A DNA stretch of 64,000 bases from a virus, in the IMG/VR virus record IMGVR_UViG_3300042884_001293, positions 16,033-80,032 of that record, one strand, 5' to 3'. The notes under the pieces were generated by a model that saw only the letters and a program-made list of their open reading frames with translations, did not search any database and was not told where the DNA came from. Position numbers and translations under genes: made by a program. Shown here piece after piece: positions 41,675-46,327 of the stretch. Positions within the stretch are counted from its first letter, which is position 1. Each line of letters begins with the position of its first letter.

Positions 41675-42205
41675 ATGTATGGAATAGAAACGGAAGACAG
41701 GGTTACAGCTTTAGCCAGTGCGCTTAGTTATTGGGTTTTTCGCTGTAGAGACAAGGGCAAAAGCCCTGCCATGGGCTTAAGAACATGGGAATATTTTCAA
41801 AGCAGTATCCAAAATGCTGCTATTCCCTCTCGCAATATCGACGACTACATTGAGAATTTAGCCAAGAAGCTTATTGTTGCACACCTCAACCCAAAAGAAT
41901 GGACTCGCATAATCGCGCCAAAACAAGTGGTTTTACGGGCTACTGTGAATGATGATGGCAGTATGGGAGACATTCAGCAAATTGATAGCGATCAAAATAT
42001 TGATCTTTGGTGGTTGGGATGGAACGACATTTTAGCCAAATTGAAACATACGCACGGGATAAGCGATCGCCATATCCTCAGTTTGTGTAAATCAAAACCG
42101 CACATTATTACTACTTTCTGTCGTGTTCGCTTTGAAAGCGATCGCGCTTTGAATATTCCAGAAGAAACAGAAAACACTCTAGATGTAGAGGCTAACAATG
42201 CTTAA
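41675..42205 (+). CDS. helical protein overlapping the cas7-like start; candidate Cas11-like small subunit (position only)
   Basis: 176 aa; stop overlaps the cas7-like ATG by 8 nt. No motif recognised. Confidence 0.4.
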   Translation: MYGIETEDRVTALASALSYWVFRCRDKGKSPAMGLRTWEYFQSSIQNAAIPSRNIDDYIENLAKKLIVAHLNPKEWTRIIAPKQVVLRATVNDDGSMGDIQQIDSDQNIDLWWLGWNDILAKLKHTHGISDRHILSLCKSKPHIITTFCRVRFESDRALNIPEETENTLDVEANNA

Positions 42206-43403
42206 TTACAATCCCCACGATCGCCACAATATCAAGCTTCACTTACAGATTACACTGCTACAGCCTTTGTCCCATATCAGTGAGTCTGTAGGCAATCAAA
42301 CCAATTTACGAACGATGAAAGTGACAGATTTAGAGGGAAATCCCTCTGAGGTGTTTTGTCTTTCTGGTAACTCGCTACGCAATCGTATTTTGAGACGCTG
42401 TGGTATTGATTCTTTCCTCTCTCAGATTGGTGTGCAAGTATCGCCAACGATGCATCACGCTCTATTTTGCGGCGGCGCGATTGATGGTGGCACGGGTAAT
42501 GATTTGGATTTGGACAGAAAGATTAGACAGCTTTTGCCATGCCTCTCAGTGCTAGGAACTGCCAAACCTAAAGGATTGTTTGGTGTATCCGATGCTCAAA
42601 TGGTGCACGGTCGGATCGCTGTTGGTGATGCGTATTTGGCTTGTGTAGAGAGCGCTAAGTATCTTTATCAGATGTTCCCCCCTGCGTTGCCAATCGAAGT
42701 CATACCAGCACTAGAGCAGATTATAGATGGCAAAGACTTACAGCATAGTCAACGAGTGAATCAATGGCTAGGAATTGATACCAATGTTTCTCAATACGAT
42801 CTAAAGGCATTGCTTGATGAGTGGCTACCGTTCTTAGGAGAGAAGCTTCGATATTATTCCGATTGGCTTACCTATAGCCAAAAAACAAGGCGCGATTCAC
42901 TTCACGATCCTAACTTTGCAAAACATTTGATCGGCGCTACTCCAGAACCTCAAAAGATGATTTCTCAATGCGATCTATTTGGTATAGTTTCGGAGCCTGA
43001 AACCAAGAAAGGTAAAAGCGACAAAGCCAAGCCCGAAAAAGAGAAAAGCCAACAGATGATTATGGGTAATTGGCTACTCCAAACAGGTGCTACTTTGTAC
43101 TCTTATTGGAGCGCAAACGTCACCAGAATCGAAGAAGGATTTATTGCAGATGCTTTACTCAAGTTTGCAGAATCGCCATACTTGGGCGGTCAATCAGGAA
43201 CGGGTTGCGGACTATGCTCTATGCAGTTTTGGTTTGAGACTGCGGAGGGCGATCGCGGTGAGTTTATGACGATTACACCTCATGCTCAGAAATTAAGCGA
43301 TCGCGCCTCTGAATCTCATGCAAGGTATAAAGAATACCTCGAAGATTACAAAGGCTTTCTCGCGGATTCTAAGAGCGATATTAGGAGTTTATTGAATGGG
43401 TAA
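42198..43403 (+). CDS. cas7: Cas7-like RAMP protein (type IV Csf2-like)
   Basis: CLSGNSLRNRILRR, LFCGGAIDGG, LLPCLSVLGTA, and C-terminal G-rich loop YLGGQSGTGCGL. Confidence 0.6.
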   Translation: MLNYNPHDRHNIKLHLQITLLQPLSHISESVGNQTNLRTMKVTDLEGNPSEVFCLSGNSLRNRILRRCGIDSFLSQIGVQVSPTMHHALFCGGAIDGGTGNDLDLDRKIRQLLPCLSVLGTAKPKGLFGVSDAQMVHGRIAVGDAYLACVESAKYLYQMFPPALPIEVIPALEQIIDGKDLQHSQRVNQWLGIDTNVSQYDLKALLDEWLPFLGEKLRYYSDWLTYSQKTRRDSLHDPNFAKHLIGATPEPQKMISQCDLFGIVSEPETKKGKSDKAKPEKEKSQQMIMGNWLLQTGATLYSYWSANVTRIEEGFIADALLKFAESPYLGGQSGTGCGLCSMQFWFETAEGDRGEFMTITPHAQKLSDRASESHARYKEYLEDYKGFLADSKSDIRSLLNG

Positions 43404-43773
43404 TTTTTCTTTCTCTATTTCAGTAAAACCAAAGCCCATCCCTTTTGATTTTGGTGATTTAACTCAGTTCAAAAAATATGAAAGTTATTCTGATTTACCG
43501 TGTGTTGAAGGCGTGTATCTTGTGTTTACTCAAGATATGAAATGCGTGTATGTTGGACAATCTGTAAACATACAAAAGCGCTTTAAAGCTGGGCATTTAC
43601 ATTGCGGGAAGCTCCGTGCCATGTACGATTTAGGCGCAAAATTTTTCTATGTAATCCCTTGCGGTTACTCCATGAAAAGCCATATAGAAGCATCTGCTAT
43701 GCACGTTTTTAAGCCAATGTTAAATATAGTTCCAGTGTGTGGTTATGGAGTGAAACATGGAAACCCGTTTTAA
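43396..43773 (+). CDS. GIY-YIG nuclease domain protein
   Basis: GVYLVF...CVYVGQSVNIQKRFKAGH...IEASAMHVFKPMLN; overlaps cas7-like by 8 nt and cas5-like by 17 nt. Confidence 0.65.
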   Translation: MGNFSFSISVKPKPIPFDFGDLTQFKKYESYSDLPCVEGVYLVFTQDMKCVYVGQSVNIQKRFKAGHLHCGKLRAMYDLGAKFFYVIPCGYSMKSHIEASAMHVFKPMLNIVPVCGYGVKHGNPF

Positions 43774-44455
43774 TAACCTCCAAATAATTGCACACATGGC
43801 AACCCCGCTAGTTGCCTATGATGACTGGTCCCCTAGCTTTGACGCTCTGATTGAGTATCAATTGTTAGACCAATTAGGGTTAATCACGCCTAATCCAACG
43901 GCTGCGGATGCCGAAAAGAATCTGCCCTTGATTTTTGATAAAATGCCGATCGCTCGGAAGACGCTCAAAGGCGAGTGGTATTGGGCTGTGAGTTCACCAC
44001 ACTACATCGAAAATCATCAACAAACTCAGCGTTACCGTAAGCGATGGGACAAGCAAGAACTACACCTTGATTGGGGTAAAAAGAAAGCTAAGGTTGATGG
44101 TTCGCAAGGGCATTTTAAAGCCTATGATTTGCCACGATACGATCGCGAAATGCAGACTATACACTGGTTTGCGATTGGCAATGCTGACAAGATTAGCGAA
44201 CTAATCCTAAATGTTACGCATCTTGGTAAGAAGCGATCGCAAGGTTGCGGACAGGTACACAAATGGGAAGTACTTCCTTTTGAACATGATTGGCATTTGT
44301 GGAGAGGTGAAAGCTTAGCCCGACCAATGCCAATTAATATGATTCCACAGCCTCAATCTATCAATATGATGAACTGGGGGTGGCGAACACCGTATTTTGT
44401 GCAATCCAATAGAACTATGTGCTATATGCCAACGGATAATGTATGGAGAGAATAG
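43757..44455 (+). CDS. cas5: Cas5-like RAMP protein (type IV Csf3-like)
   Basis: N-terminal ATPLVAYDDWSPSFDALIEYQLL and G-rich loop HLGKKRSQGCGQVHKWEV. Confidence 0.55.
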   Translation: METRFNNLQIIAHMATPLVAYDDWSPSFDALIEYQLLDQLGLITPNPTAADAEKNLPLIFDKMPIARKTLKGEWYWAVSSPHYIENHQQTQRYRKRWDKQELHLDWGKKKAKVDGSQGHFKAYDLPRYDREMQTIHWFAIGNADKISELILNVTHLGKKRSQGCGQVHKWEVLPFEHDWHLWRGESLARPMPINMIPQPQSINMMNWGWRTPYFVQSNRTMCYMPTDNVWRE

Positions 44456-45138: not shown

Positions 45139-45715
45139 TTGGGCTGACTATTCCTTAGCTAGGATCAATTTAGTCGCATCAGGACGTGGGAATTGTGGAG
45201 AAATTCTGCCTAAAGCTACCGATGAAACTATTATCAAATTTCGAGAATCTCTAGCAGGTCGTTTGGATGAAGACGATCGTCAAATGCTAGGAATTTATGA
45301 CAAATTGGTAGATTGCCCTGTTAATACTTTAGGCTTTGAGATGCGTAATTATTACAAAAATAACGGGCATTCTCCCATTGAGCCTACAGGTACTTTTCCC
45401 GTGCGCTACATCATGATTCACGATGCTCATCACGTTTTAATTAACGCTTCTACCTCTGAGCAAGGCGAACTTAATGTGCTTGCGTTTGAGTGTGGAATGA
45501 TTAAGCACGGCAGCTCGTCAGAATCAATTATTCCCTTACTAGCACAGGCTAAAGCTTTCCCAGATTGCGATATTGTTGAGATTGCAAAATATTGGGAAAT
45601 GGGCTGTAATGCTAAGTTTGGGCTTTTGGAACAATGGGATTTGGCTCAATGGATTGACAAACCAGTACAAGAAATCAAACAAACTTATGCAGTCAAACAA
45701 CCCTTACAAAAATAA
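45125..45715 (+). CDS. COQ4-family-like metalloprotein
   Basis: Exact HDxxH-x11-E pattern: HDAHH VLINASTSEQG E. Confidence 0.55.
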   Translation: MKDFNWADYSLARINLVASGRGNCGEILPKATDETIIKFRESLAGRLDEDDRQMLGIYDKLVDCPVNTLGFEMRNYYKNNGHSPIEPTGTFPVRYIMIHDAHHVLINASTSEQGELNVLAFECGMIKHGSSSESIIPLLAQAKAFPDCDIVEIAKYWEMGCNAKFGLLEQWDLAQWIDKPVQEIKQTYAVKQPLQK

Positions 45716-45745
45716 AGGATTGTCAAATGTTAGGGGCTTTTAAAA

Positions 45746-46327
45746 ATGAGTAACTTTATTGAATTTCTTTTCAGTATTGAAGGCTCTTTAATCCCTAGAA
45801 ACTACCATTATTGTCTCTATTCCGCTTTGACGGGATTAGCTCCTAAGTTCAAAGATAACCCTGAGTGGGCGATCGGTAGAATCAGTAACACAAATATTTT
45901 TGACGATCGCACATTACGTTTAACTCAAAGCACTATAAAACTACGTTGCTCCAAAGATTTAATTACAGAGCTAACGATGCTTTTTGATTGTCAAATCCAT
46001 TTAGGCAAAGAGTTGATTAAACTCAAGCTGGTTAATGGCACAGAGCTAAAATCTCAAGAGAATCTAGCGGCTTGGGTATCAATTAAAACCGACAACAATC
46101 GTGAACCCGATCTTACTAGGTTTGCGGTGTCGCTAGGTAAGCAACTAGCAAAGTTTGATATTAATACACTGCCAATAATAGGGCGCAAAGAGCAGCTAAT
46201 TATTAAAAAACAGCCGTGTGCTGTATACCCTGTAATGTTTTCAGATTTGCATCCTAACGAGTCTTTGACATTACAAGAGAAAGGGTTGGGAGGTCGCAAA
46301 CATCTAGGATGCGGGTTTTTTGAATAA
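45746..46327 (+). CDS. cas6: Cas6-like endoribonuclease (Cmx6/type I-MYXAN-like)
   Basis: N-terminal FSIEGSLIPRNYHYCLYSAL and C-terminal SLTLQEKGLGGRKHLGCGFFE match the Cmx6 pattern as I recall it. Confidence 0.6.
   Translation: MSNFIEFLFSIEGSLIPRNYHYCLYSALTGLAPKFKDNPEWAIGRISNTNIFDDRTLRLTQSTIKLRCSKDLITELTMLFDCQIHLGKELIKLKLVNGTELKSQENLAAWVSIKTDNNREPDLTRFAVSLGKQLAKFDINTLPIIGRKEQLIIKKQPCAVYPVMFSDLHPNESLTLQEKGLGGRKHLGCGFFE

Follow-up and report, generated by a model that had tools for sequence, protein, structure and literature searches.

A Csf1-less, type IV-B-derived CRISPR-Cas operon with Cas6 and an exchangeable CysH/Coq4-like cassette in a cyanophage

Results

The window analyzed here is a 64,000-nucleotide (nt) stretch of viral DNA (positions 16,033 to 80,032 of the record IMGVR_UViG_3300042884_001293), and its subject is a CRISPR-Cas operon at 41675–46327. 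Seven co-directional open reading frames (ORFs) lie there on the plus strand. They code for proteins of 176, 401, 125, 232, 231, 196, and 193 amino acids (aa), in the order cas11–cas7(csf2)–(GIY-YIG insertion)–cas5(csf3)–cysH-like–Coq4-like–cas6. The first six ORFs are linked by five stop/start overlaps of 8–17 nt each, and cas6 follows its neighbor after 30 nt, the sole gap in the operon. An earlier note on this DNA had described seven same-strand genes, six of them chained; every ORF and all five overlaps were recovered exactly where it had placed them, and each peptide motif that it quoted was found in the translations. The operon is closed by an intrinsic terminator directly 3' of cas6 (46387–46408, plus strand; a 9-bp stem with six G–C pairs, followed by T7), which is kept in eight relatives. 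A near-consensus promoter, TTGACA-17-AATAAT, follows at 46444–46472 and serves the next gene. A conserved noncoding RNA after cas6 was considered and ruled out, the conserved block being this terminator and promoter.

The first gene, which the earlier note had left unnamed, is cas11 (41675–42205, plus strand, 176 aa). The encoded type IV small subunit matched PADLOC typeIV_Cas11 at 9.7e-13 and 4.9e-11, and almost every related locus reaching that far has the gene directly 5' of cas7. This identification strengthened the assignment to type IV-B. The backbone subunit gene cas7/csf2 (42198–43403, plus strand, 401 aa) gave matches to PADLOC Csf2_0_IV (4.1e-44) and TIGR03115 (6.7e-6). Csf2-type Cas7, the signature for classifying type IV, is thus present. 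A profile search against PDB sequences found the IV-B Csf2 7jhy (6e-7) and the IV-A Csf2 8rc2 (7e-7) equally weakly. For the AF2 model (pLDDT 81), the best Foldseek matches were type IV-A Csf2 chains (1e-13); the model also matched type III Csm3, and 7jhy at 9e-7. A disordered K/E-rich insert occupies approximately residues 247–287.

The cas5/csf3 product (43757–44455, plus strand, 232 aa) matched PADLOC Csf3_0_IV at 6.5e-47 and TIGR03116 at 2.4e-17, the latter under the equivalog cutoff of 140 bits. The last gene, cas6 (45746–46327, plus strand, 193 aa), belongs to the Cmx6/type I-B family: its product matched Pfam PF09559 at 7.2e-34, TIGR02807 with 107.6 bits (equivalog cutoff 98.85), and the type I-B Cas6 of PDB 8fcj_B at 2e-10. 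Its C-terminal G-rich loop GLGGRKHLGCGFF is conserved. The three products that had been called Cas7/Csf2-, Cas5/Csf3-, and Cas6/Cmx6-like all gave significant profile matches, far beyond chance. The PAPS-reductase fold, also proposed earlier, was confirmed for the cysH-like gene (CasCysH; 44443–45138, plus strand, 231 aa; PP-loop ATP-pyrophosphatase fold), whose product matched Pfam PAPS_reduct at 2e-13.

Neither a CRISPR array nor a match to a CRISPR direct repeat was found in the 64 kb by tandem-repeat (TRF), direct-repeat, k-mer, and Rfam scans, with both gathering and E-value cutoffs used for the last. The Synechocystis I-MYXAN repeat and the repeat of a distant sister locus (L049), searched at up to 3 mismatches, likewise gave no match. 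Contigs L073 and L081 show the genome to be circular or circularly permuted: past the right end of the window, their sequence rejoins window position ~1180 after ~6–8 kb. An ordinary crRNA-guided (CRISPR RNA-guided) system with its array in these ~6–8 kb could therefore be considered, and some distant relatives do carry arrays 1–5 kb from the operon. However, no array was found in the 9.7 kb past the right end of the window on contig L072 (98.9% identical), in the other 23 head-gene loci, or in any Cas6-bearing locus with 10-kb flanks. The arrays of L049–L051 adjoin Cas12/TnpB-like genes, in loci without Cas6. Since near-identical contigs covering most of the missing part of the genome are also array-less, a hidden array is largely excluded, and we regard this explanation as very improbable.

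The large subunit Csf1 is missing as well. The clade hidden Markov model (HMM), run over six frames of the 64 kb, gave a best E-value of 0.7, and tblastn with the Csf1 proteins of five relatives gave no match; in the relatives, Csf1 was clearly detected by PADLOC (1e-24 to 1e-26). The absence of an array and of a recognizable Csf1, both stated in the earlier note, thus held under these searches. Among the 20 window proteins scanned, there was no match to Csf1, DinG, RecD, Cas10, Cas1, or Cas2, and the only helicase identified was the replicative DnaB; none lies in or near the operon. Two neighboring proteins were tried as Csf1 substitutes and rejected, namely a 224-aa downstream protein (46504–47178) and a 114-aa upstream protein. 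Neither has a Cas match; both are encoded by syntenic phage genes that only the closest relatives of the window share.

Comparisons between close relatives gave ratios of nonsynonymous to synonymous substitution (dN/dS) of 0.40 for cas11 (against L008 and L009), 0.07–0.13 for cas7, 0.13–0.24 for csf3, 0.12–0.41 for cas6, and 0.04 for the Coq4-like gene. The six Cas and accessory genes together span 0.04–0.41; the GIY-YIG gene has no diverged homologue. These values show purifying selection on each gene for which relatives allow a comparison. The missing Csf1 and a mobile endonuclease inserted in the operon would fit a decaying, non-functional IV-B remnant that has lost its large subunit. We find this hardly credible: all ORFs are intact and joined in a coupled, overlapping chain, the dN/dS values are low, at least 10 contigs, recovered from many samples, keep the Csf1-less architecture, and the insertion re-created the csf3 start codon. 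What the analysis shows is a type IV-B-derived effector set, intact, under selection, and co-transcribed, that includes Cas6 but no Csf1, array, or helicase.

To place the operon among its relatives, a census of ~60 loci was scored with clade HMMs. Cas7 had 131 homologous clusters, nearly all of them metagenomic. The Cas11–Cas7–Csf3–CysH core was present in essentially every locus long enough to show all four. The nearest non-cyanobacterial loci, whose Cas7 proteins are ~25–35% identical, have the canonical order Csf1–Cas11–Cas7–Csf3–CysH, and the clade HMMs found all five proteins there (CysH at 1e-15 to 1e-37). The nearest non-cyanobacterial Cas7 relatives all lie in such canonical IV-B operons. 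Gene order and protein matches thus place the clade, and the operon with it, in the type IV-B lineage. The IV-B-related phage effector operon proposed in the earlier note was borne out by the gene identities and the phage context.

In most of the cyanophage clade, csf1 lies 3' of cysH. The census contigs comprise ~25 with Csf1 only, ~13 with Cas6 and Csf1, and ~10 with Cas6 only, the last group including the window and its 95–97% identical relatives. Two Cas6 proteins, P0125 and P0126, open with the N-terminal (zinc-finger) peptide of Csf1, NNCYLCAAPNADKPLAL; Csf1 itself has MNNCYLCAAPKADRPLAL. Of the two, P0126 was traced to its contigs; there, csf1 follows ~0.6–0.8 kb downstream, full length in one of them and shortened to 147 aa in L097 (3423–3866). 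These chimeras and the L097 csf1 look like intermediates of a Csf1-to-Cas6 replacement. The Csf1 peptide on Cas6 and the truncated csf1 suggest that cas6 recombined at the 5' end of csf1, which then decayed and was lost. Within the cyanophage clade, cas6 appears to have arrived upstream of csf1, which the sub-clade of the window subsequently lost. The gene that the earlier note had described as a retained Cas6-like gene is therefore a Cas6, but apparently an acquired and not a retained one. L003 (16261–16369) has a pair of 38-nt direct repeats, 87% identical and 71 nt apart, the second of which overlaps the csf1 start codon; L004 and L034 have the same pair. We considered it as a one-spacer mini-array, and judged it to be a scar of recombination where csf1 begins, much like the Csf1–Cas6 chimera, since one copy lies in coding sequence.

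Cellular Cas6 homologues are 23–28% identical to the phage protein, and at least two of them are located in I-MYXAN/type I-B loci. The phage gene appears to have been acquired from the cyanobacterial Cmx6/type I-B ('I-MYXAN') Cas6 family. A pattern scan for Cas6 homologues in species-representative genomes found none, and a word-indexed search returned 10 clusters, all of high-identity Cas6 from metagenome contigs.

The distant sisters L048–L051 are Csf1-type IV-B loci without Cas6, with Cas7 proteins 43–44% identical. They carry arrays of 37-nt repeats (e.g., CTTGCAACTAAGACTGGGGACTGAGGATAGTTGAAAC) with up to 28 repeats, 1–5 kb from the operon (L049:16333–18046, L050:18537–19315, L051:16333–19127, and L048:16603–17078). 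In L049–L051, the arrays adjoin Cas12/TnpB-like genes of 622–623 and 587 aa (PADLOC Cas12u2, 1e-56 to 3e-166); no Cas12 was found near the L048 array. The spacers of the relatives' arrays had no meaningful match to the window or to any of the collected loci. These arrays with Cas12/TnpB-like neighbors, close to sister IV-B operons, echo the reported association of IV-B with V-B3 (PMC12669027).

The second unusual part of the operon is its enzymatic half. The PP-loop of CysH, S(W/G)GKDS, is kept from the phage to canonical IV-B loci (SWGKDS here, aligned with SGGKDS), and a conserved C-terminal catalytic Cys motif was not found in the alignment that included the canonical loci. With a PP-loop and no catalytic Cys, the phage protein fits the published description of CasCysH (PMC8175902). 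Nucleotide homology to six relatives, whose flanks are 92–98% identical, ends at 44634–44654 and resumes at 45742–45752. The break at ~44650 corresponds to approximately codon 70 of cysH, just past the PP-loop, and the recovery to the start of cas6. The segment between (44655–45741, no strand applying) is a hypervariable cassette, consisting of the 3' two-thirds of cysH and the Coq4-like gene. CysH is 51–55% identical where Cas7, Csf3, and Cas6 reach 95–97%. Among the relatives, only L029 has the cassette of the window, at 96% identity, though its Cas7 DNA is only 86.5% identical. In the relatives, the slot 3' of cysH holds a 236-aa Coq4-like protein gene (hhalign 99.6%), a cupin gene, or nothing. 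The break points, together with the cassette of L029 beside a divergent Cas7, show from the alignments that one unit, made up of the substrate-side portion of CysH and the partner enzyme, was swapped.

The partner gene in the window (45125–45715, plus strand, 196 aa) codes for a Coq4-fold protein. Its Pfam Coq4 (PF05019) match, 6.4e-4 with 19.5 bits, is below the gathering cutoff of 22.9. Its AF2 model (pLDDT 73.7) gave just three significant Foldseek matches in the PDB, all chains of the cyanobacterial Coq4 homologues 6e12 (6.6e-6) and 3msq (5.9e-4), with a probability of 1.00 and a TM of ~0.55. The metal-site motif HDxxH-x11-E (H99, D100, H103, E115) is invariant across the Coq4-like family; we take HDxxH-x(10-13)-E to be the Coq4-defining metal motif. 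The branch is small and divergent: 1.84 billion proteins yielded 16 representatives at E ≤ 1e-10. On cyanobacterial plasmids, two cellular Coq4 genes that were checked showed no linkage to CRISPR/Cas or PAPS-reductase genes.

Other genes also come and go in this region. In L002 (2264–2707), a tyrosine-phosphatase-like gene lies between csf3 and cysH, and L006 (13429–14238) carries an AcrVA2-like gene 3' of csf1. With such differing extra genes in its relatives, the operon is a hotspot of accessory-gene turnover. In L005, cysH and the Coq4-like gene are ~1.5 kb from the remaining csf genes, with three opposite-strand genes between them.

This last arrangement suits a guide-independent module, in which the CysH-like and the Coq4-like or cupin proteins modify phage DNA, RNA, or a metabolite, and the Csf proteins serve as an RNA-binding scaffold or regulator. 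The hypervariability of the enzymatic half, typical of arms-race determinants, and the several other DNA-modification genes on the phage agree with it, as does the finding that a purified IV-B complex bound non-specific RNA (PMC7937560). However, in loci from different phyla, CysH is encoded beside the csf genes or at a very short distance from them, which argues for its physical or functional coupling to the ribonucleoprotein (RNP), and the gain of Cas6 points to a defined RNA substrate. We therefore consider a guide-independent module improbable.

The GIY-YIG nuclease gene (43396–43773, plus strand, 125 aa) interrupts the core. Its product matched Pfam GIY-YIG at 2.9e-5 (24.7 bits against a gathering cutoff of 22.6), and the catalytic positions GVY (39–41), YVG (51–53), R62, E98, and N110 could be read from the sequence. 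The gene lies on a 369-bp lineage-specific insertion (43404–43772) between the cas7 stop and the csf3 start, and the alignments with six close relatives are interrupted at precisely 43403/43773. The insert captured the old csf3 start codon and provides a new one, METRFN- replacing MDN-. The gene is missing from the other 58 census loci (L001–L058), including relatives 92–97% identical in DNA. An identical protein is encoded on at least seven metagenome contigs; in at least four of them, its gene lies directly 3' of cas7 and is followed by csf3. Alleles with and without the insertion occur side by side in sample 3300042295.

Given this narrow, lineage-specific distribution and its absence from 92–97% identical relatives, a mobile endonuclease is more likely than a subunit, and the gene is most likely a selfish, free-standing homing endonuclease that landed between cas7 and csf3. 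The alternative is a newly recruited effector nuclease, comparable to the HNH gains in type I and IV-A2, by which the module would become a cleaving one. The insertion is precise and keeps translational coupling on both sides, the protein is short (125 aa) and lacks a DNA-binding domain of its own, and at least four contigs, which stem from several samples, carry it unchanged in this place; the 2025 classification also notes that mobile nucleases were captured repeatedly by variants of types I and IV (PMC12669027). Nevertheless, the gene is restricted to one narrow lineage, both alleles coexist in one sample, as is expected of a mobile element, and a fusion to a Cas protein was not seen. Recruitment is unlikely in our view, though it deserves to be kept in mind. 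The earlier note had spoken of unusual extra subunits, and of a nuclease and a COQ4-like protein inside the operon; both genes are present there, and nothing shows either product to be part of a complex. At 48772–49284, 2.4 kb downstream of the operon, there is a second stand-alone endonuclease-like gene of the T5orf172/GIY-YIG-related type (phrog_681 endonuclease, 3.5e-11; phrog_18411 homing endonuclease, 3.5e-7), so the phage holds other endonuclease-like genes of such a kind.

The window derives from a siphovirus-like cyanophage, with a tape-measure gene at 8499–12467, a major head protein gene at 62736–63689 (minus strand), a DnaD-like loader and the DnaB helicase at 49281–51706, and methyltransferase genes. 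Its relatives carry NblA and sit in metagenome-assembled genomes (MAGs) of Pseudanabaena and other cyanobacteria, which makes a Pseudanabaena-like filamentous cyanobacterium of freshwater the probable host. No isolate phage in the phage database matched the operon DNA, Cas7, or the GIY-YIG protein. The DnaD-like replication-initiator gene (49281–50351) contains five perfect 21-bp tandem repeats, TGAACCACCATCGGATCATTT, at 49661–49768, which look like an iteron-type origin embedded in its own initiator gene. A 296-aa protein adjoining DnaB (52136–53026) matched PADLOC SspD at 2.5e-12 and no Pfam family; as a relative of CysH it was ruled out, the two being unrelated by BLASTP. DNA-modification genes lie at 34444–35487, 55260–56036, 56203–56763, and 56724–57629, a set comprising a phrog_116 methyltransferase, a DUF5131 protein, Dam, and a type II-like methyltransferase. 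Within a 483-aa ORF without a family match (4498–5949, minus strand), a 51-bp stretch is perfectly duplicated in tandem (5343–5444).

Discussion

We propose, with moderate confidence, that this array-less, Csf1-less, IV-B-derived operon forms a Cas6-nucleated RNP that acts together with the CysH/Coq4-like pair. Cas6 would bind, and probably cut, hairpin-containing RNA supplied in trans. As the phage has no array, host CRISPR transcripts would be the most plausible source, cyanobacteria being array-rich. Cas5, a Cas7 filament, and a Cas11 minor filament may then build up on the neighboring RNA, capped at one end by Cas6. Such a complex would do without a large subunit, as in csf1-less IV-A2, which shows that a type IV complex can function in this form (PMC7038947). 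In the purified IV-B complex, Cas7 and Cas11 form filaments on RNA, and the RNA bound was heterogeneous and non-CRISPR (PMC7937560). Target cleavage is probably not the mode of action. The RNP would work with the adenylating enzyme CasCysH and a metal-dependent partner, Coq4-like here and a cupin in sister phages, either to sequester RNA or guides or to chemically mark or block a complementary target, in phage–host or phage–phage conflict.

A rival explanation makes the locus a crRNA sponge or anti-CRISPR: the phage Cas6 processes host pre-crRNA, Cas5, Cas7, and Cas11 load it into inert filaments, and the host complexes are starved of guides. An array-less, phage-borne locus that nonetheless encodes Cas6, in a clade with no conserved nuclease or helicase, would suit such a sponge, and the idea has been published along with a negative correlation of IV-B with other CRISPR systems (PMC7038947, PMC8175902). 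It leaves the universal CysH-like enzyme, its co-swapped partner, and the strong purifying selection on the two unexplained, however, and the Csf1-only relatives without Cas6 are in the majority. The authors of PMC7038947 judged such a complex anti-CRISPR unlikely; we share this opinion while granting the sponge a real minority chance.

A more novel reading is that a Csf1-less, Cas6-capped IV-B filament loads host crRNAs or another defined hairpin RNA and guides the swappable CasCysH and Coq4-like/cupin pair to complementary nucleic acid. This reading is speculative and rather improbable. If true, the operon would encode no nuclease but a system that, guided by RNA, chemically modifies or blocks its target and that cyanophages turn on host immunity or on rival elements; the chemistry or the substrate would be set by the hypervariable cassette of the cysH 3' part and its partner.

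Several points weigh against the RNP explanation. Guide-dependent action is unproven for the whole IV-B subtype, the sole purified complex having bound non-CRISPR RNA (PMC7937560). The cellular Cas6 proteins found reach no more than 28% identity to the phage Cas6, too little to infer its substrate from them. Cas6, CysH, and the Coq4-like protein are putative enzymes, and host CRISPR transcripts are a candidate RNA partner. A solitary repeat, a mini-array, or a conserved hairpin was not found near the operon; the array-bearing relatives L048–L051 do exist, though without Cas6, and the sequence examined covers all but ~6–8 kb of this exact genome. Finally, the GIY-YIG gene, translationally coupled and without a DNA-binding domain, could have a recruited effector role.

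No CRISPR-Cas subtype is less understood than type IV-B. It lacks an array, a nuclease, and a known RNA partner, the role of its near-universal CysH-like protein is obscure, and the 2025 classification gives no mechanism for it (PMC12669027). A Cas6 that replaces the large subunit implies a specific structured RNA substrate, which is open to capture and sequencing. The swapped cassette suggests that CysH works with a second enzyme, and points to the enzymatic half as the part that determines specificity or the outcome of an arms race. A further natural experiment is offered by the sister phages, in which IV-B occurs together with CRISPR arrays and Cas12/TnpB-like genes. This one set of related loci makes IV-B function directly testable, and the clade extends IV-B to abundant freshwater cyanophages.

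The earlier note's suggestion of an undescribed system was too strong. IV-B loci on prophages, lytic phages, and archaeal viruses have been documented (PMC7038947, PMC10848311), as have csf1-less type IV variants (PMC8175902); IV-B loci with Cas6 are rare, but 12 have been noted (PMC7038947). Full-text literature searches returned no paper on a cyanophage clade with Cas6 displacing Csf1, on a Coq4-like or cupin partner of CasCysH, or on a recombination-swapped cassette of the cysH 3' part and its partner.

Comparison with known systems

Among the described viral loci, the IV-B operon of the Bathyarchaeia 'Fuxiviridae' (PMC10848311) is likewise virus-borne and has an adjacent CysH. In contrast to the present operon, it keeps Csf1 and a mini-array, and no Cas6 was reported for it. 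With type IV-A and IV-A2, the operon shares a Cas6-family endoribonuclease and a Cas7 fold nearest to IV-A Csf2 structures. Unlike type IV-A, it has neither DinG nor an array, contains Cas11 and CysH, both missing from IV-A, and has a Cas6 of the Cmx6/type I-B family instead of Csf5, Cas6e, or Cas6f. It differs from type IV-D in that the RecD helicase was not matched among the 20 scanned window proteins and an array is missing, and from type IV-C in that no Cas10-like large subunit with an HD domain was matched among the same proteins.

Two components have their closest known counterparts outside type IV. The I-MYXAN/type I-B Cas6 (PDB 8FCJ) has the G-rich loop GxGGRxHxGCGxF in common with the phage protein, which scores above the TIGR02807 cutoff; in contrast to cellular Cmx6, the phage cas6 is not beside Cas3, Cmx8, or an array. 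The Coq4 homologues Alr8543 (6E12) and Npun02000094 (3MSQ) share the all-helical fold and the HDxxH...E motif with the partner protein, which differs from the Coq4 family in staying under the Pfam threshold and forming a divergent branch.

The closest system overall is type IV-B itself, e.g., the Mycobacterium sp. JS623 complex (PDB 7JHY). Cas11, Csf2, Csf3, and the PP-loop CysH are homologous in both, and both lack an array, an adaptation module, and a helicase and reside on a mobile element. The window differs by the absence of Csf1, the presence of Cas6, the Coq4-fold gene after cysH, and a Cas7 that is ~100 aa longer and has a disordered insert; in the cyanophage clade, csf1, where present, is usually at the end of the operon and not at its start. 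Of the formal IV-B features, the presence of Csf1 and the absence of Cas6 (to which rare exceptions are known) did not hold here, whereas the Cas11-like small subunit, the adjacent cysH-like gene with a PP-loop and no catalytic Cys, and the lack of an array and of adaptation genes did. With two features deviating and these in agreement, we file the locus as a variant of type IV-B rather than as a new type.

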